Below are positions 24,970 to 51,128 of a DNA stretch of 64,000 nucleotides, piece after piece. The notes under the pieces are model-generated. The model did no database searches, had not been told where the DNA came from, and saw only the letters and a program-made list of their open reading frames with translations. Origin of the DNA: a virus; IMG/VR virus record IMGVR_UViG_3300028840_003851. The stretch is one strand, 5' to 3'. The translations under genes and the position numbers were made by a program. Numbering within the stretch: position 1 is the stretch's first letter; every line of letters starts with the position of its first letter.

Positions 24970-27555
24970 TCACACAAGACCATACGCGCTGAGCGCTGAT
25001 ATTGTCTGAGGAGAGATGCCTCCTGCAGCACTCATGGCGCTCCCGAATGTAGGATACGGGTTACCTATAGAAGCTCTAGGAGCTACGGGACCACCTGGCC
25101 CCACAGACCATCCGGACGACAAGGGACCGCCTCCCGCCATCCGCATCCCAGAGCCCTTCATCGCCTTCATGATTGCTCTTTGCTCGTTAGCCTGCACCTT
25201 GAACGCGGTAGGGTAGTAATCCTCCTTCCCCATCACCTGCACCTTGGCCGTCTTCTCCTGCACCGCAGCCTGCTTCACCTCCATCCCTAGCTCCCTGGCA
25301 CGTTCCACCCTCCCCTGAAGGTCCTTGACCCGAAGAAGCTGACGACGTACCTCCTTCGCACTGTCTCGCGGAGCTCCTCCACTTCTCTGGTTGGCGAGAA
25401 GGGTGCCTACTGTGCTTCCTCCCAGCACTCCAACGAGAGGTGCCGCTTGCGCCAGGAGATGCTTTCCTCCAAGAGCACGGGCACCGAGACCTGCACCAAA
25501 GCCTAAGCCAGCACCAGCCAAACCGTACAGCTGCTGCCGCCTCCTGCGCTCCTTCATCTGCTCTGCCGCGCCGGCAGCTCTCTCCAGAGCCTGACCCTGT
25601 TGATGGTGGGCCAAGATACCCTCCAGCAGGGCTGCAGTGTCGTCCCCCTTTTCCGCCGTCTTTGCTGTGCCCTCCGGGTCTACACCCAAAAGAGCCTTAA
25701 CGACGTCAAGGCCAACCTCAAACATGCTGCTTAATAGCTTAGGGGGTATGTGCTCCTTATATGCCTGTAGTGCGTCACTCTTGTTGTCATAGCCGACAAA
25801 CACCTTGTACTCATCGAACGTACCGTCCGGCTTTACCTGCCTAGCCCAGAATGTCCTTGTAGAGCCTTTGCTCGGGCCTACGAACACATCAAGGCTATCC
25901 CCGTCTCCTCCATTAGCACCTTTGAGGTAGCCGTAGTCTGTCTTGTACACGCGCTTCCACGGTGTACCCCCCTCGTCTACGCCCTCCATGACGAACCCCT
26001 TTGGGCGGTCTATGTGCACAGTGAGCCCTTGAAAGTATACCTTCTTCTTTGCTCTACCGTCCTGCGCAATCTTGTCTAGCTCTCCTACGAACCCACGCCA
26101 CCTGTGGAGCGCTGTAGGAGACCAGACCTCTGCTCTTTTCTCTTTGCTATCCATTAGCCCTCTAAACTGCCCTATCAGCTTCTCTTTACGTTGGGCGTGT
26201 GCCGTCAGGTACTCATCTATGCCCCCGCCGGGCTTTGTTATCTTCAGCTTCTCCAGCAACCCTGCCTTTGGTCTTGTGGCAAGGTAGCTCTCTACTGTGA
26301 TGTTTCGTTCCTTCTTGGGTAGGTGCGTATGGCTTCTGTACCTAATGCCTCGGCCTTCCACCTGCTTCAGCTTCTCTGTGTTCCAGTGTGGCTCTAGCAC
26401 CTGGAGCAGCCTGGTGCCCTTGAGGTCTAGCCCCTCACCGCCTGCTGAGCTAAGCAGTAGAACCCTCTTATTCCCTTCATTGTAGTCTCGAACCAGCTGG
26501 TCACGCTCCTTCTTGGGCATGGCCCCGGTGAACTCCCCGTAGGGGATGCCCGCCTGCTCAAGCCTCTCCTTGTACGGGCGTACCCCAGCATCCAGATAGT
26601 TTGAGTAGACCACCCCCTTAAACCTGGGGTTGCCCTCTAGCTTAGCCTTCATACGTTTGAACGCTGTATCAACCTTGGGCTCTTGGGGGGGCTCCTTTGG
26701 CGCATGCGCCCTCGTGGAGAGAGATATCTGCCGTACAGCAGAGGCAAACGCGTTAAGCTGCTTGGACTCCTGCTTGGAGGGGGGGAGACCCGCCTTTATC
26801 TTGAGCGCTACCCACGGAGGGGCTTGTCCTATTACCCCATCGTACAGCTTGCGCTGTTTGGCGGTCATGGGAACCTTCACCACCTCCCTCCTCACGTCTG
26901 GGAAGTCGGCCTTCGTGCCAGGGTGGTAGTCTACCCACGTACGCATCACCTTCTTGAGCTCGTTGGCCTGTCTCGGGTTAAGCTCCTGCACCGTCCCAGG
27001 CTTGGCCCCACGGATACGCTGCCACAAGGAAGGATTGATGCGCGTCTCCTTCACGTACCTCTGCTCAAAGCTCTTCTGGTCTGGGGGGAGGACACGCTCC
27101 CCCGCGGCAATGTTTATCAGAGGAGCTATGTCACTTGGCCTATTATAAAATGGGCTCGCCGTGAGGAGCATACGCTTATCTGAGAGGTTCCTCTTAAGCG
27201 CTTGATAGGTCTTAGAGTCCACCTCTCTTGCTCTGTGCGCCTCATCTACAATCAGCATGGGCGCATCTATCACCTCGCCTGCTCTTGCTACACGCTGCAG
27301 AGTAGTAATAGCCGCCTCGGGGGAGGTGCCTTCTATGTGCTTCTCTCGCTCCTTCTCGTAGTTCGCCTTCAAGGAGGCGGGCACGACCACAGTAGAAGGA
27401 AGACCTAACGCATCCTGTGCAGCAATAGAGCTGAGGGTCTTACCAGAGCCTAGCCCATGAGCCACTACCAGCCCTGGCTGCTCCTTCATACGCTCTACTA
27501 CCTTGCGCTGATGGGGCTTTAGCTCATGGCGTATTGCCGCGACCTTCTCAGACAT
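24970..27555 (-). CDS. Polyvalent protein: SNF2/SF2 helicase + InPase-like domain + glycine-rich hydrophobic segment
   Basis: HGLGSGKT, IVDEAH, LLTASP, SAGGEGLDLK, QVEGRGIR; then YKTDYGYLKGANGGDGDSLDVFVGP. Confidence 0.9.
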   Translation of the reverse strand: MSEKVAAIRHELKPHQRKVVERMKEQPGLVVAHGLGSGKTLSSIAAQDALGLPSTVVVPASLKANYEKEREKHIEGTSPEAAITTLQRVARAGEVIDAPMLIVDEAHRAREVDSKTYQALKRNLSDKRMLLTASPFYNRPSDIAPLINIAAGERVLPPDQKSFEQRYVKETRINPSLWQRIRGAKPGTVQELNPRQANELKKVMRTWVDYHPGTKADFPDVRREVVKVPMTAKQRKLYDGVIGQAPPWVALKIKAGLPPSKQESKQLNAFASAVRQISLSTRAHAPKEPPQEPKVDTAFKRMKAKLEGNPRFKGVVYSNYLDAGVRPYKERLEQAGIPYGEFTGAMPKKERDQLVRDYNEGNKRVLLLSSAGGEGLDLKGTRLLQVLEPHWNTEKLKQVEGRGIRYRSHTHLPKKERNITVESYLATRPKAGLLEKLKITKPGGGIDEYLTAHAQRKEKLIGQFRGLMDSKEKRAEVWSPTALHRWRGFVGELDKIAQDGRAKKKVYFQGLTVHIDRPKGFVMEGVDEGGTPWKRVYKTDYGYLKGANGGDGDSLDVFVGPSKGSTRTFWARQVKPDGTFDEYKVFVGYDNKSDALQAYKEHIPPKLLSSMFEVGLDVVKALLGVDPEGTAKTAEKGDDTAALLEGILAHHQQGQALERAAGAAEQMKERRRRQQLYGLAGAGLGFGAGLGARALGGKHLLAQAAPLVGVLGGSTVGTLLANQRSGGAPRDSAKEVRRQLLRVKDLQGRVERARELGMEVKQAAVQEKTAKVQVMGKEDYYPTAFKVQANEQRAIMKAMKGSGMRMAGGGPLSSGWSVGPGGPVAPRASIGNPYPTFGSAMSAAGGISPQTISALSAYGLV

Positions 27556-27560
27556 GCCTC

Positions 27561-27569
27561 ATCGTACCA
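27561..27569 (-). promoter_or_regulatory. Extended -10 element, probable leaderless start
   Basis: TGG-TACGAT-GAGGC-ATG. Confidence 0.5.
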
Positions 27570-27607
27570 CCATCCGTATGCACCGAGCACCTCTGTCAGA
27601 GCGAGAT

Positions 27608-27641
27608 GTGAAAGTTCGTCATGAAATAAAGCATAAGAATA
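27608..27641 (+). promoter_or_regulatory. Phage-type promoter motif upstream of candidate ncRNA
   Basis: GTGAAAGTTCG-N5-AAATA-N4-ATAAGAATA; aligns with the 28428 copy. Confidence 0.45.
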
Positions 27642-27669
27642 ACGAGATGGAAGATACATCTCAGGTGCC

Positions 27670-28345
27670 GACCAGAGTTAAAGCCCTCTGGTCAGGGAGA
27701 GCAGTCTCCCGCCATCGGAGTGGCGCCCGGTGGTTAGTGTTTTTTACCGAGGTACTCTCGGTAGGCTGGATGCTGGGCCGGTGACCAACAGCATCCGCAA
27801 AAGCCTGAGCACGGAGCTTCCCGGAGCTCTGCGCTGCTTATCTTAAGAGAGGCTGCGGTGTACCGCCGCGGATTAACCTCTCGCATGGGCTCCTACCAGT
27901 CCCTTAAAGGTAGGGTACGGCTCATGGCAGGTCTCCTCTTCACAATGAGGCCACATGCAAAGGGACACGCAACGACTCTGACAGCACCGCCACGTTGGGC
28001 CTTCGGCCTCTCGCGGTGCAGTCAGATTCGCCGCGCTACACCCTCCGCTAATGGTGTCTCTCGGGGCGTCAGGAGGAAGTGTAGGGCTGTGGGTTATAGG
28101 CCCCAGCGGGTTCGAGTCCCGAAACAGCCTCTATGTATAAGACAAAAGGCATGACTCAGTCCGAGCTCTCCGAGCTCGGACTGATTGCTGGGTACCACAT
28201 AGTACCCAGCAACCCCCCACGCCTCCCGCGTGGGGAGCTAACACCGGCCTGCGAGTGTGAGTCGGACCACTGGGTCCGACTATTCGGCCCATGGTACGTC
28301 TGCCCCCTCTGCGGGGCAGCTCCTGCTGAAGGGCACGAGCCACTC
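27670..28345 (+). ncRNA. Candidate large structured RNA (at least 15 adjacent hairpins, tRNA-like module)
   Basis: Back-to-back stems of 5-13 bp; G-U wobbles favour the + strand; T-arm CGGG-TTCGAGT-CCCG at 28107-28121. Confidence 0.65.
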
Positions 28346-28357
28346 GTATGCAGGTAA
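28151..28357 (+). CDS. Possible Cys/His micro-protein overlapping the hairpin array
   Basis: ATAAG-N9-ATG as for the 29889 gene; CECESDH...CPLCG; followed by the cassette element. Confidence 0.35.
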   Translation: MTQSELSELGLIAGYHIVPSNPPRLPRGELTPACECESDHWVRLFGPWYVCPLCGAAPAEGHEPLVCR

Positions 28358-28388
28358 GGGTAATGGGAGCTCCCCTATGAGAGCGCCC

Positions 28389-28427
28389 CGTCCAAGCTGA
28401 GACGTTAAACCAGCTTTTCTTAGCTCC
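28389..28427 (+). repeat. Cassette 3' element, copy 1
   Basis: CGTC-CAAGCTGA-GACG-TTAAACCA...TTTTCTTAGCTCC. Confidence 0.7.
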
Positions 28428-28518
28428 TTAAAAGTACGCTCAAGAATAGGTAATAAGAATAGTGAAGGAGACCACAGACACGTGCAAAGGTTGTGCGCTG
28501 CTCTAGTGGTTCAAGAAA

Positions 28519-29691
28519 ATGTCGAACATCACTTCCAACATCACCACCATCACCACCATCAGCACAACCGCAACCATAATCAACACCCCGGTGGTAGTCG
28601 ACCGCCGGGAGGGGGAGGAGGACCGAAGGGTCCTCGAGGTGGTTGGGGACGTAAGGGATGAGGAGGAGATTGAAAATCTCCTCCTCATTGTGGACGCGTT
28701 GATGGAGGGGAGGGAGGAGGTGGTTCCTGCCCTCCTCCCGGAGGGGTGGGAGTACAACGACGGGTACTTCCCACCCCGTATCGACACCACGTGGGAATCC
28801 CCGACCTCCCCGCTCCCCCCTATGGGAGCGGTGAAGGATTACCTGAACGAAATCCGGGTATCCATCCAAAACTATCCCCCGAGTGATGAGGTTGCCCGGG
28901 CCGTAATGGCTTGGGCCGAGACCCTCCCAGAGGGTAGGGGGAGGCGACTGGTGGGGGGAGCCCAAGCGGGCTCCGGGCACATAGCCCTACTCGATGGATG
29001 GAACGCCTACCAGCGAGAAGGGTGTGACTGGGTGAGCGTAGAGTTCGAGTTCCCTCCCGTCGAGGAGGTAATAGGGGCTCTGCGCGCCCTGCGTCCCGGG
29101 AGGTACGATAGGGAGGAGGTTGCCGTTCTCGGCAATCGGTTCTCCAGGCTACCCTGGGGATCGATTGAGGGGATGCCCGGATGGTTCATCCAGGACAGGG
29201 CAAAAGGGGACTGGTCGTCCCCTTACAGGGAGCGGACATTGTGCCTCCACCGAGTACCGGTAGTGACCATGGAGTACTGCACCTCCCTGATGCCCTTCAG
29301 GACCTTGGAGCTCCAGGTGTTCTCCGTGGAGGAGGGTAAGGCCCTCCGCCAGAGGGAGAAGGAGGAGAACCGCGCCAGTGCCCGAGAGTACGCAGACTCT
29401 AGGGCCCAGGCTAGGGACCTTCTCCTAGCAGGGGCGGAGCTGCAGTACTTTCCCGGGCAGATGGGAGGGGTGCTGTACTTTGAGGGCCTGCAAAGGTATG
29501 TCTCCGCTCACGGCGCCCTGCGGGGGCTCCTCCCGGATGTCGAGGTGGCAGAGCTGCTGTATAAGGCGGCGCAGGAGGACGCACCTCGCTGGATACGACT
29601 CCCACGGAAGCCCACTATACCAAAGTGGGTGGGGAAGAAGGCGGGGAGGTCCGCCGAAGCAGACATAGAGGAGGGGCTGGCTGAGCTCTAA
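28519..29691 (+). CDS. Hypothetical protein (390 aa)
   Basis: Long ORF with Thr/Ile-rich N-terminus; no recognisable family. Confidence 0.75.
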   Translation: MSNITSNITTITTISTTATIINTPVVVDRREGEEDRRVLEVVGDVRDEEEIENLLLIVDALMEGREEVVPALLPEGWEYNDGYFPPRIDTTWESPTSPLPPMGAVKDYLNEIRVSIQNYPPSDEVARAVMAWAETLPEGRGRRLVGGAQAGSGHIALLDGWNAYQREGCDWVSVEFEFPPVEEVIGALRALRPGRYDREEVAVLGNRFSRLPWGSIEGMPGWFIQDRAKGDWSSPYRERTLCLHRVPVVTMEYCTSLMPFRTLELQVFSVEEGKALRQREKEENRASAREYADSRAQARDLLLAGAELQYFPGQMGGVLYFEGLQRYVSAHGALRGLLPDVEVAELLYKAAQEDAPRWIRLPRKPTIPKWVGKKAGRSAEADIEEGLAEL

Positions 29692-29774
29692 AGGCCAGCC
29701 CCTTCCCTCCCCAGTGGTCGTGGCAAAGCCACTGGGGAGACACCGATGTGTCTGGCAAGCACATGGTGTAACCT

Positions 29775-29855
29775 CGTCCTCAGCTGAAGGACGTTAAGCA
29801 GAGCGCACAAGCTCTTCGGCACGGGACCATTAATGGTCCTTTTTAGTACCGTAAA
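29775..29855 (+). repeat. Cassette 3' element, copy 2, with terminator
   Basis: CGTCCT-CAGCTGA-AGGACG-TTAAGC; AGAGC-GCACAA-GCTCT; GGACCA-TTAA-TGGTCC-TTTTTAGTACCGTAAA. Confidence 0.75.
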
Positions 29856-29888
29856 ATAATACGTAAAATCGAGCATAAGAGTAATGGT

Positions 29889-30182
29889 ATGAAATACAAC
29901 CGCGACTGCAGCGTGTGCCTCAGTGAGAGGCGCAACCCATTCAGTCATGAATGGGACTGCGTCGCGGGTCCAGAGTGCCCGGAGTGCCATAAGTGCTCCG
30001 GGGTAATATTCGACACACAGTACAAGTCGGTAGACGGAAAATACTACTGGCGGGAGTACTATGTCGAGCCCCATGGCCGCATGGGGAACAGAAGCTACAA
30101 CGACGACTACCGAGTCGGGTACTTCTGCTCATGCGGCTGGGAGTACTCCAGACCCCGGCGTAGGAAGAAGGATGATGAGTAA
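29889..30182 (+). CDS. Cys-rich zinc-binding protein
   Basis: CSVC, CPECHKC, CSCG. Confidence 0.75.
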   Translation: MKYNRDCSVCLSERRNPFSHEWDCVAGPECPECHKCSGVIFDTQYKSVDGKYYWREYYVEPHGRMGNRSYNDDYRVGYFCSCGWEYSRPRRRKKDDE

Positions 30183-30199
30183 GGGAGCTCTCAAGTCCC

Positions 30200-30280
30200 A
30201 CGTCTAAGCTGTGAGACGTTAAACCATGGGCGCAACAGCCCTACCAGCACGGACCTCATGGTCCTTTTTAGCTCCGTAAA
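30200..30280 (+). repeat. Cassette 3' element, copy 3, with terminator
   Basis: ACGTCT-AAGCTGTG-AGACGT-TAAACCA; GGGC-GCAACA-GCCC; GGACC-TCAT-GGTCC-TTTTTAGCTCCGTAAA. Confidence 0.75.
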
Positions 30281-30312: not shown

Positions 30313-30600
30313 ATGAAGGACGAGGAGCTGGAGGCCATCAAGGAGCGCCTCAAAGAGACAGACAACAGAGCAGCCTCCCTAGGGGTCTACTCCCAGACGA
30401 CGAACGACATGCGCGCCCTCATCCAAGAGATAGAGGTCTTGCGCAGGCGACAAGCCCTGTTAGCTGCTGTCGTAGACGCTGCAGTAAGACTTTGGTCGGT
30501 AGGAGCCGGTCTTCTCCGTACCTCGCTTAAGGACCTGCACGACCGATGGCCCAACTGGCAGAGCGAGACATCCCGCAGGAGCGGCAAGAAGGAGGACTAG
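30313..30600 (+). CDS. Coiled-coil hypothetical protein
   Basis: MKDEELEAIKERL...DMRALIQEIEVLR. Confidence 0.75.
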   Translation: MKDEELEAIKERLKETDNRAASLGVYSQTTNDMRALIQEIEVLRRRQALLAAVVDAAVRLWSVGAGLLRTSLKDLHDRWPNWQSETSRRSGKKED

Positions 30601-30963
30601 ATGGAGGAGAAGCTAGCCGTAGAGCTCATCAAGACCGTCCCCCTAGTAGGAGTTCTGTTCTGCGCGCTAACCCTAATATGGAGAAGACTTATTGCTGTTC
30701 AGGATAAGCACGACACATACCTTAAGGAGAACGCTGACAAGCTCACTATGCATACAGACAAGCTCCGCGAGGCCATAACAAACAATACACACGCCAACCA
30801 GAGCGTAGCTAAGGGGCTAGCAGAGCTACGTAGGTCAAACGAGCTGTTGGCGCGAGAGGTGATGGAGCTCCGCCTGGAGCATAGGTCCCCGTCCACTAGA
30901 CCCCTTATTGACTCCTCTAGGCCCCCACTAGAGTCGGGACACAGAATCTACACGGAGGAGTGA
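30601..30963 (+). CDS. Single-TM holin-like protein
   Basis: GGAGG RBS; VPLVGVLFCALTLIWRR followed by a coiled coil. Confidence 0.6.
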   Translation: MEEKLAVELIKTVPLVGVLFCALTLIWRRLIAVQDKHDTYLKENADKLTMHTDKLREAITNNTHANQSVAKGLAELRRSNELLAREVMELRLEHRSPSTRPLIDSSRPPLESGHRIYTEE

Positions 30964-31208
30964 TGAAGAGCTTCATCTACCTCCTATTTGGGGAGCTGAG
31001 CAAAGTAACGCCTGAGGAGAAGAGGCTGCATGACGCTTGGGACAAGCTAGGGGAGGCGAACGACGAGATTAACAATAACCTGGATAGACTGGAGGGGGCT
31101 ATACGTAAGGCCAGGAAGCAGGGCGCCCAGGCTGCGCAGGAGATACTCGATGGAGAAGAGGCCAGGCAAAGAGGAGAGCAAGACGGAGAATGCGCGAAGG
31201 AGAGTTAG
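30960..31208 (+). CDS. Small coiled-coil protein
   Basis: GGAGG RBS; coupled to the previous gene. Confidence 0.65.
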   Translation: MMKSFIYLLFGELSKVTPEEKRLHDAWDKLGEANDEINNNLDRLEGAIRKARKQGAQAAQEILDGEEARQRGEQDGECAKES

Positions 31209-31692
31209 GGCCGTCAGCTCTAACATCCAGCTCGCCGCCACCAGCAAAGCAAGCTACTGGTCTGAGCCCATGGCTAAGCTGGCTGCCGCCTTTGACGAGG
31301 TGTGTCACGTATCCTTAGAGGTTACGGACGAGATACGAAGGTCGCAGGAGGTTAACGCCAAGATGGTTGTTCTGGCGCGTGACCTTACACGTAGGGCACA
31401 CACAGTGACAATTGCCGTGTGCCTCTTCGTTTTGGCAAACCTTTTCCTGACCGCCCTTCTGTACTACCAATCTGCAAGGAAGCTAGACGAGATACAGCGG
31501 GGACAAGTGGCTAAGAGCCACAGCCACCCGGCTTACCTAACGAGCAGGGACCTACCGCCGCCGCCCCCTACCGTTACTGTGACCGTAACGGTGAGCAGCA
31601 AAGCTCCCCTGAGGCACCCTGTCCGTAGACCTCCTGCTGTAGCCCCCAAGCCTACCGCGTCTTCGCCTAAGCCGACTCCAATGTTCGAGTGA
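31150..31692 (+). CDS. Membrane protein with Pro-rich C-terminus
   Basis: TM VTIAVCLFVLANLFLTALLYY; PPPPPTVTVTVTV tail. Confidence 0.65.
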   Translation: MEKRPGKEESKTENARRRVRAVSSNIQLAATSKASYWSEPMAKLAAAFDEVCHVSLEVTDEIRRSQEVNAKMVVLARDLTRRAHTVTIAVCLFVLANLFLTALLYYQSARKLDEIQRGQVAKSHSHPAYLTSRDLPPPPPTVTVTVTVSSKAPLRHPVRRPPAVAPKPTASSPKPTPMFE

Positions 31693-31701
31693 CAATCGAT
31701 G

Positions 31702-31775
31702 TGCCCAGCGATAGGGTCGAACTCGCAGCATACCGCTTTTGAGGCGGCCTCCTCTGCCTTTTGGGCTAGCTTGGC
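31702..31775 (-). tRNA. tRNA-Leu(CAA)-like, degenerate T-stem, short variable loop
   Basis: Anticodon arm GCCGC-CTCAAAA-GCGGT; T-stem GCGAG/CTATC has two mismatches; no full CCA. Confidence 0.65.
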
Positions 31776-31851
31776 TGGTACCGGGAACAAGAGTCGAACT
31801 TGCACTGAGCTGGTTCTAAGCCAGCTGCCTCTGCCGTTGGGCTACCCCGGC
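31776..31851 (-). tRNA. tRNA-Leu(TAG), CCA encoded, short variable loop
   Basis: GCCGGGG acceptor, GCTGG-CTTAGAA-CCAGC, GCAAG-TTCGACT-CTTGT, ACCA end. Confidence 0.92.
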
Positions 31852-31858
31852 AAAACCT

Positions 31859-31938
31859 TGGGATGCTCCGGGCATCGAACCCGGACGATAGACATCATGA
31901 ATTCTGTTGTGCGTCGTCTACCGGCCCTAGCACATCCC
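31859..31938 (-). pseudogene. Degenerate tRNA (possible CAT anticodon)
   Basis: Intact acceptor GGGATGT/GCATCCC and T-arm CCGGG-TTCGATG-CCCGG; D and anticodon stems do not pair; 80 nt. Confidence 0.6.
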
Positions 31939-31945
31939 TAAGGCA

Positions 31946-32016
31946 GCTGAGTATGAGGGAATCGAACCCCCTTCTTCAGGTTTGGAGCCTGAGTGCCCAC
32001 CATGGGCTATGCCCAG
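31946..32016 (-). tRNA. tRNA-Trp(CCA), atypical
   Basis: TCAGG-CTCCAAA-CCTGA; D-arm GCCC-ATGGT-GGGC; extra A between T-stem and acceptor. Confidence 0.75.
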
Positions 32017-32212: not shown

Positions 32213-32296
32213 GGTGGACAGTGATGGAATCGAACCACGCGCCTCACAGCAGCTGGGTTACAGCCAGCCCAGTCTCCAAGACTGTATGCACCGTCC
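32213..32296 (-). tRNA. tRNA-Tyr(GTA)
   Basis: GGACGGT/ACTGTCC acceptor, GCTGG-CTGTAAC-CCAGC, variable arm, TTCGATT T-loop; unusual 5-bp D-stem CAGTC/GACTG. Confidence 0.85.
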
Positions 32297-50612: not shown

Positions 50613-50643
50613 AGGGGAGCGCACGAGCTCCCCTTTTTTAGCT
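50613..50643 (+). terminator. Intrinsic terminator at convergent junction
   Basis: AGGGGAGC-GCACGA-GCTCCCC-TTTTTTAGCT. Confidence 0.85.
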
Positions 50644-50645
50644 CC

Positions 50646-51128
50646 CTAAGCTCCGGCTGCTAGCTGCGCCTGCCTAGCTGCGCGAAGCTTGGCTGCCCTC
50701 TGGGCCATCTGCGACTCAGCCGCCTGCATCGTGGATGACCCAGCCTGCGACACCGTCTGCTTTGGTATCATGGCAATCCGGTTCATGGCGGTTAGAGCTC
50801 CGGTGGTGTCCCCTCCGGCTCCCCGCAGACCCATGGCAAGCATTGCTGTCGGGTCCCTTATCTCCCCGCCCGTGGCTGCCTCCGCTGCTCTCCTAAAGCT
50901 GGGGTCCTCCATCAGCTTCTTGGCGCGGGTCATGTGCGAAGGAAGGGCGGGAGCCCCTGACGCCAACCTTTGACCCGCCCTTGTTGGGGGCAGAACCCTG
51001 CCTATTGTCTTTGGTTTGGCTACCGATGCGACGCCCCTCGTTAAGAACTTCGGAATAGGCAGGCTCTTGGCCACCTTAGACATGTAGTCGTGTAGCGACC
51101 TGACTAGCTGTAGGGTCTCACCGTCCAT
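50646..51128 (-). CDS. Basic Ala/Arg-rich protein with K-x-A leader (probable internal virion protein)
   Basis: LHDYMSKVA followed by a low-complexity basic sequence. Confidence 0.7.
   Translation of the reverse strand: MDGETLQLVRSLHDYMSKVAKSLPIPKFLTRGVASVAKPKTIGRVLPPTRAGQRLASGAPALPSHMTRAKKLMEDPSFRRAAEAATGGEIRDPTAMLAMGLRGAGGDTTGALTAMNRIAMIPKQTVSQAGSSTMQAAESQMAQRAAKLRAARQAQLAAGA

Follow-up and report, generated by a model that had tools for sequence, protein, structure and literature searches.

A 64,000-nucleotide stretch of DNA (IMG/VR record IMGVR_UViG_3300028840_003851; hereafter the window), which is one part of an uncultured phage genome of ~178 kb, carries three units of like build at 27.6–30.3 kb, each with a promoter-like box, a body and a 3' element. 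Our subject is the first unit, cassette 1, which lies in the gap beside a gene for a SNF2 helicase. The interpretation we prefer, with a probability of somewhat under one half (about 0.45), is that cassette 1 runs from a promoter to a terminator, that its first ~490 nt form a non-coding chain of hairpins which ends in a tRNA-like minihelix and precedes a doubtful small open reading frame (ORF), and that its hairpins are a property of the whole island of three cassettes. A preliminary description of this DNA had proposed one large, 'ornate' structured phage RNA of ~700 nt. What stands of that proposal is a stretch that is probably non-coding and exceptionally structured, placed between a recurring promoter-like box and a 3' hairpin with a T-run; the single ornate RNA is not supported, as the confidently predicted helices are only local and an equal excess of structure is found in the genes for a 390-amino-acid (aa) and a 97-aa protein in the two neighbouring cassettes.

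A putative promoter-to-terminator unit, the first of three

The features of cassette 1 are as follows:
27610–27641, plus strand: promoter-like box P1 (AAAGT ... ATAAGAATA), recognised as a recurring motif and by alignment
27644–27846, plus strand: 5' hairpin chain of about eight local stem-loops, with pair probabilities of 0.6–1.0, a z-score of −4.45 and no coding signal
27847–28083, plus strand: central hairpins, five larger local stem-loops with helix probabilities of 0.84–0.99
28084–28131, plus strand: D-armless tRNA-like minihelix, read directly from the sequence
28133–28357, plus strand: doubtful Cys-rich ORF of 74 aa (68 aa from the AUG at 28151), coinciding with five perfect hairpins, z-score −8.24
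28365–28432, plus strand: 3' element E1, consisting of GGGAGCTC, the hairpin CGTCC-AAGCTG-AGACG, TTAAAC and then AGCTG/CAGCT with TTTTCTTAGCTCC (a weak terminator), aligning with E2 and E3

The ATAAG promoter-like motif that had been noticed upstream of the stems is real and recurs: ATAAGARTA has three copies in the 64 kb, all on the plus strand (27633, 28453 and 29875), and these can be aligned over ~40 nt, including a common upstream AAAGT box. At the other end of the units, E1 can be aligned with E2 (29692–29855) and E3 (30183–30280). Common to all three 3' elements are GAGCTC, a hairpin of the form CGTC(C/T)-loop with AGCTG-(G/A)GACG, and TTAA(A/G)C; E2 and E3 additionally share a second small hairpin, a GGACC/GGTCC terminator with T5, and then TAG(C/T)(T/A)CCGTAAA. 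At its fifth pair, the first hairpin has C-G in copy 2 but T-A in copy 3. E1 is contiguous with the second promoter-like box (P2), as is E2 with the third (P3), and E3 closes cassette 3. The best explanation of this arrangement is that cassette 1 (~27645–28430) is a putative promoter-to-terminator unit, the first of three.

Two further observations concern these motifs. A fourth copy of the terminator tail, with the hairpin AGGGGAGC/GCTCCCCT followed by TTTAGCTCCCTAAG, lies outside the island at 50613–50650, and the motif is therefore in use elsewhere in the genome. The palindrome GAGCTC, found in the conserved start of the 3' elements and in several hairpins, occurs 69 times in the whole window, against 32 ± 5.5 expected from dinucleotide shuffles.

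The gap that contains cassette 1 (27556–28518) is bounded on the left by the SNF2 gene (24970–27555, minus strand) and on the right by the 390-aa gene (28519–29691, plus strand). In the two closest relatives (genomes G001 and G002), whose SNF2 proteins are 74% and 63% identical, synteny is kept on both sides of 27.6–32.4 kb, and the whole insert, which includes the plus-strand cassettes and tRNA genes, is absent from both. This absence from syntenic relatives fits the expectation for a hyperplastic accessory locus. The three head-to-tail cassettes, in an orientation opposite to that of the surrounding minus-strand operon, are best explained as a strain-specific accessory island.

An excess of hairpins across the island

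Every stem named in the preliminary description is present at its position, and the structure is beyond chance. With RNAfold, the minimum free energy (MFE) of 27660–28350 is −344.4 kcal/mol, whereas dinucleotide shuffles give −274.8 ± 6.5 kcal/mol (plus-strand z −10.7, minus-strand z −8.4), and each third of cassette 1 is significant alone, with shuffle z-scores of −4.45, −3.77 and −8.24. Six perfect hairpins, defined by a stem of 8 bp or more and a loop of 3–14, lie within 27670–28281 (stems 8–13 bp). At the background of 0.55/kb outside 27600–30250, about 0.44 would be expected in 0.8 kb, which by our own arithmetic gives a Poisson P of ~1e-5 for six.

The chain of stems is thus real at 27670–28345, but it is not confined there and extends through two real genes as far as about 30200. 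When the whole window is scanned for GC-adjusted MFE, nearly all extreme plus-strand windows fall at 27600–30200, where 13 of the 27 windows of 200 nt have z < −3.4 against dinucleotide shuffles (lowest values −10.4, −8.5 and −6.9); in 101 control windows, the mean z-score is −0.38 with a standard deviation (SD) of 1.18 and a minimum of −3.39. Perfect stems reach 4.9/kb in the island versus 0.55/kb in the rest of the window, a ninefold difference. The genomes of the two relatives have 0.35–0.55/kb and at most 6 per 2.65 kb, versus 13 in the island; the densest cluster in G001 lies at about 115000–118000 (6 in 2.65 kb). The excess reaches from the first promoter-like box as far as the third terminator, and the genes that come next (30313–31692) are ordinary.

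When compared with synonymous-codon shuffles, the 390-aa and 97-aa genes have z-scores of −5.9 and −6.7, and eight control genes or segments range from +0.8 to −3.0. Since these two real genes are structured beyond their synonymous shuffles, the hairpins have been selected or generated at the nucleic-acid level, atop the protein sequence. As the excess is superimposed on neighbouring coding sequences, the hairpins are a property of the island transcripts and not the signature of one RNA gene. Inside the 390-aa gene, a perfect 14-bp palindrome (28658–28688) encodes DEEEIENLLLI.

Predicted fold of cassette 1

In the partition function of 27641–28440, all helices with a probability of at least 0.5 are local and span at most 112 nt, with one exception, a 4-bp end-to-end helix with a span of 772 and a probability of 0.71 that we regard as spurious. 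As the confident helices are all local, the model predicts beads on a string without a multi-junction or long-range architecture; the stem-loops number about 13 as far as 28131 and about 8 beyond it. Among the individual elements, 27973–28030 is an interrupted 16-bp stem capped by a C(UUCG)G loop, and 28133–28357 contains five perfect hairpins of 13, 11, 8, 9 and 7 bp. When the piece 27846–28134 is folded in isolation, its MFE structure is closed at 27848–28131 by an 8-bp end-to-end helix, AGAGGCUG/CAGCCUCU; in the ensemble of the full transcript, however, the local hairpin 27847–27882 (probability 0.97) beats this closure.

About 100 nt past the promoter-like box, a terminator-like hairpin at 27711–27734 is followed by TAGTGTTTTT (site 27711–27746, U-run UAGUGUUUUUU). 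Judged by its sequence, this weak hairpin with its U-run could act as an attenuator or mark where a small RNA of ~100 nt within cassette 1 has its 3' end.

The tRNA-like minihelix

The minihelix at 28084–28131 comprises a 7-bp acceptor-like stem, a 3-bp stem with a 7-nt loop in the place of an anticodon arm, and a canonical T-arm (CGGG-UUCGAGU-CCCG). It has no D-arm, CCA is not encoded, and it ends 2 nt upstream of the AUG (28133) of the doubtful 74-aa ORF.

Known tRNA-like processing modules offer a comparison. mascRNA forms the 3' end of MALAT1, and tRNAs act as 'punctuation' in polycistronic transcripts; in both, cleavage by RNase P and RNase Z separates the parts. Like these modules, the minihelix has an acceptor-like stem stacked on a canonical T-arm and lies at the junction of a long structured RNA and a downstream unit. 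Unlike them, it lacks the D-arm and has an 'anticodon' stem of only 3 bp, and the Rfam mascRNA model gives 14.9 bits, below the gathering score of 42.5; the likeness is one of functional analogy only. The Rfam tRNA model has no match in the gap, even at E-values up to 10.

With transfer-messenger RNA (tmRNA), the resemblance is that the isolated 285-nt piece (27848–28132) can close end to end with the T-arm beside the 3' strand. The differences are that a G3-U70 pair is missing from the candidate in the window, whose acceptor pairs are G-C, A-U and G-C, that three unpaired bases separate its T-stem from the 3' strand, that the closing helix is disfavoured in the full transcript, and that neither ARAGORN nor the Rfam tmRNA models find anything. 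The idea that the minihelix is an attP-like copy of the end of a host tRNA was rejected, as a scan of the species-representative genomes for its 3' part gave a single chance match in a gene of an actinomycete metagenome-assembled genome, and no tRNA.

Coding capacity

Coding was assessed in six frames with a 3-periodic Markov model, scored in bits/codon. In agreement with the preliminary description, which had seen no convincing ORF, no frame of 27554–28400 scores as coding (−0.16 to −0.44 bits/codon, with the six frames unseparated). Of the 18 control ORFs, all but one spurious antisense ORF reach −0.02 bits/codon or more in frame. Furthermore, cassette 1 does not have the G-rich skew of the sense strand found in most other coding sequences measured, and the public gene call for an identical contig has no gene in the 960-bp gap. 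For 27645–28131, at the least, it is very probable that the stretch does not code for protein.

The other two cassettes hold real protein genes. The 390-aa ORF scores +0.10 bits/codon, far ahead of its other frames, and for the 97-aa Cys-rich ORF, too, no other of the six frames scores better.

Comparison with known RNA families and phage cassettes

At gathering thresholds, Rfam finds only two tRNAs in the whole window, and at E-values up to 10 it finds three chance-level matches of 15–17 bits in 27400–28600. For GOLLD, ROOL, OLE, HEARO, raiA, group I and II introns and RNase P, no match of an Rfam covariance model was at or near the gathering score; the preliminary description had likewise been unable to match the stems to GOLLD or ROOL. 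A single-sequence covariance model of 27968–28132 returned only itself from 433 kb. Scans of IMG/VR with exact and degenerate motifs (T-arm with acceptor strand, tRNA-like loop with T-arm, E hairpin, terminator tail) gave nothing, or ordinary tRNAs and chance matches. To judge from these searches, cassette 1 is outside every known RNA family.

GOLLD and ROOL are large phage RNAs whose setting is similar in phage origin, size and nearby tRNAs (10.1101/2024.12.08.627333). Cassette 1 is likewise hundreds of nucleotides long and phage-encoded, has tRNA genes nearby and no coding potential, and is predicted to be strongly structured. It differs in that a string of local hairpins is predicted instead of multi-junction, pseudoknotted domains, and in that it is an orphan, represented by one sequence and lacking covariation support, which neither covariance model matches.

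PeSL (promoter-early stem-loop) cassettes belong to hyperplastic regions of T4-type phages, variable loci in which copies of a terminator stem-loop directly followed by a promoter separate the orphan genes (Arbiol et al. 2010, PMC2839356; PMC4122927). The island similarly repeats a composite of terminator stem-loop and promoter-like motif beside short orphan genes, its units stand head to tail with their own promoter-like box and terminator each, and the locus differs between related phages. However, the promoter-like box of the island is not a sigma-70 consensus and the motif sequences are unrelated to those of T4-type phages; the phage analysed here is not T4-like and has almost no PHROG matches; and the island bodies are saturated with hairpins, one of them apparently being gene-less, neither of which has been described for PeSL cassettes. 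By analogy, the nearest known kind would be an accessory cassette of the PeSL type, of which the island may represent an unusual hairpin-saturated variant whose first unit is apparently gene-less.

Weighing of the interpretation

Several results weigh against the interpretation that we prefer, and they are given here together with the alternatives on which they bear. No sigma-70-type site was found in 27300–28800, and the promoter-like box is unlike the sigma-70 consensus. The cloverleaf-type fold of the minihelix has −17.2 kcal/mol and is thus 3 kcal/mol worse than a rival fold (−20.2 kcal/mol), the probability of its T-arm is below 0.5 in the ensemble, and ARAGORN finds no tRNA or tmRNA there with default, relaxed, intron, mitochondrial or tmRNA settings. 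No homologue was found by blastn in distant mode among 50,697 phage records, or by blastn and nhmmer in 595 kb of relatives plus the whole genomes of the two closest ones, and the JGI metagenome loci likewise yielded none; as no collection searched contains a homologue, there is no covariation support. Folding energy and G-U counts do not identify the transcribed strand: the preliminary description had taken the G-U character of imperfect pairs as a sign of the plus strand, but the strands have 30 versus 18 G-U pairs and nearly equal energies (MFE −382.6 on the plus and −385.2 on the minus strand), which does not discriminate; the ratio of sense to antisense energy is 1.000 in cassette 1, and in control genes this ratio merely tracks the GC skew. 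Part or all of cassette 1 may be coding, now or formerly, and the stabilising and processing roles proposed below are purely inferred.

The possibility of coding is the core of an explanation that we consider unlikely, namely that cassette 1 is a decayed or partly live protein cassette, a former gene of ~237 codons that has suffered two frameshifts, has kept the hairpin load of the island, and whose last piece, the 74-aa ORF, may be translated. Three open stretches (27542–27781 in frame 2, 27765–28151 in frame 0 and 28100–28354 in frame 2) overlap end to end and tile cassette 1 with only two frame switches, versus five on the minus strand; two or fewer occur with P of about 0.05 in shuffles, which is marginal, and 11% of the antisense strands of real genes tile as well. 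An ATG lies as far from P1 as the start codon of the 97-aa ORF lies from P3, and the 74-aa ORF, which carries CxC...CxxC, has its stop 8 nt short of the conserved GGGAGCTC in E1, an arrangement that the 97-aa ORF shares with respect to E3. A protein language model finds the 74-aa ORF protein-like, with zinc fingers as the nearest named clusters, and its recognition value of 2412 is equalled by 9 of 100 shuffled sequences. On the other side, the three pieces score −0.16, −0.37 and −0.17 bits/codon with unseparated frames, the last value being that of the 74-aa ORF, for which it is not the best frame; the middle piece is Arg-rich and its translation un-protein-like; the ribosome-binding site before the 74-aa ORF is weak or absent; and this ORF has no homologue and no Pfam or PHROG family. 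AlphaFold2 (AF2) gave a predicted local distance difference test (pLDDT) value of 49 for the 68-aa product, and 38 for the 390-aa product, both too low for fold searches.

It is somewhat less probable that cassette 1 encodes one dedicated non-coding RNA of about 500–770 nt that folds into a defined higher-order architecture, includes the tRNA-like module in this fold and forms a new class comparable to GOLLD and ROOL. Its size, phage origin and distance of 3.4 kb from a tRNA cluster resemble the GOLLD/ROOL setting, a coding signal is lacking, the z-score is extreme, and the isolated piece 27846–28134 can be closed next to the T-arm by its 8-bp end-to-end helix. This helix, however, loses to a local hairpin in the ensemble of the full unit, which prefers local hairpins throughout, Rfam is empty even at E-values up to 10, and a second example was found neither in the phage records nor in IMG/VR or the relatives' genomes. 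The neighbouring coding cassettes are equally dense in hairpins, so that structure is no discriminator, and perfect 11–14-bp stems with 3–6-nt loops are, to our knowledge, not typical building blocks of ornate RNAs. Slightly slimmer again is the chance that the element acts as DNA, with hairpins that form in single-stranded or cruciform DNA for cassette recombination, replication initiation or protein binding, or that arose as a by-product of template switching that perfects inverted repeats. The full strand symmetry of the folding energy in cassette 1 would fit this, as would several perfect 13–14-bp palindromes with 3-nt loops, one of them within coding sequence, and the location in a divergent gap that borders an island differing between relatives; the PeSL stem-loops of T4-type phages serve as recombination sites (PMC2839356). 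The palindromes all differ in sequence, however, and one binding protein does not account for them; neither iterons nor direct repeats nor an AT-rich unwinding region were found; and the extent of the excess, from the first promoter-like box to the third terminator, is a better fit to transcription units.

Proposed function and significance

According to the interpretation that we prefer, a structured non-coding leader or RNA in a PeSL-like accessory cassette of a hairpin-rich island, transcription would start at about 27645 and yield some 13 independent stem-loops in a row. This chain would end in the tRNA-like minihelix (28084–28131), 2 nt before the AUG of the possible 74-aa ORF, and the unit would end at the weak E1 terminator (about 28425). 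The hairpins might act in cis, prolonging the life of the transcripts and protecting them from Rho and from the exo- and endoribonucleases of the host. The minihelix might serve as a processing site of the RNase P or RNase Z type, and its cleavage would set the 5' hairpin RNA free from a downstream message that retains almost no leader, as the AUG at 28133 would be two nucleotides from the new 5' end.

A bolder version, which we regard as a long shot, would be that a genuine, stable phage non-coding RNA of 500–770 nt exists, with a hairpin chain and a 3' tRNA-like module processed by tRNA enzymes, and that the accessory transcripts of the island, coding or not, are selected for saturating structure, a strategy not described so far. 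Such saturation could help to resist host RNases, Rho or RNA-targeting defence, or provide a decoy for them. Should the transcript exist, then phages would have a large non-coding RNA that is outside all described families and linked to a tRNA-like processing signal.

More robust than this is the result on the 2.6-kb island itself, in which nucleic-acid structure is laid on coding sequence 5 to 7 SD beyond synonymous shuffles, which is unusual for a double-stranded DNA phage. This points to selection that acts on how stable or accessible the transcripts of accessory genes are, the genes being probably early or anti-host ones. It also calls for caution in the discovery of non-coding RNAs, as an extreme folding z-score here fails to tell RNA genes from mRNAs.

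Neighbouring genes and genomic setting

The other two cassettes of the island are:
28440–29855, plus strand: cassette 2, with P2, the 390-aa gene (28519–29691) and E2 with its GGACC/GGTCC + T5 terminator, supported by coding score and remote homologues
29860–30280, plus strand: cassette 3, with P3, the 97-aa Cys-rich ORF (29889–30182) beginning 6 nt past the box, and E3 with its terminator, supported by motif alignments and the best of six frames

A word-indexed search with the 390-aa protein returned only itself. A full phmmer search found five remote relatives of aa 210–390 (P0008–P0012; E-values 7.5e-13 to 7.8e-5), and this C-terminal half represents a small uncharacterised family without a Pfam domain; the N-terminal half has no relatives. 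The short contigs of the two relatives that were looked up show no upstream non-coding stretch, and a homologue of the 390-aa gene on another contig (L057) has no hairpin excess. The idea of an omega-RNA of the IscB/TnpB type of a structured RNA upstream of a ~400-aa gene was dropped, as neither RuvC nor HNH nor another Pfam domain is present in the 390-aa protein.

The left neighbour of cassette 1 (24970–27555, minus strand) encodes a fusion of SNF2 helicase and InPase, as found in DarB-like polyvalent proteins. Among 20 JGI metagenome loci obtained by a search with the SNF2 protein, none has an upstream gap; packed co-directional ORFs are found upstream instead. The SNF2 gene of G001 (IMGVR_UViG_3300028920_000002; L001, 1856–5845) has an additional N-terminal extension of ~715 aa that is absent from the gene in the window.

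The setting is phage-like, and PHROG matches are scarce among the window proteins. The window sequence is also present, identically, on a 123-kb Logan contig, and the flanking proteins, which are all in single-member 90% clusters, occur on contigs of up to 178,578 bp.

According to ARAGORN, three tRNA genes lie at 31701–32015 on the opposite strand, 3.4 kb from cassette 1. Two of them on the minus strand, tRNA-Leu(CAA) at 31701–31775 and tRNA-Leu(TAG) at 31776–31851, follow each other with zero spacer, and Rfam at its gathering score gives the second only. Uncalled by ARAGORN or by Rfam at gathering score, a further tRNA-like sequence is found at 32215–32296 (minus strand), with a GGTTCGATTCC T-loop, an anticodon-like GTA and a long extra arm.

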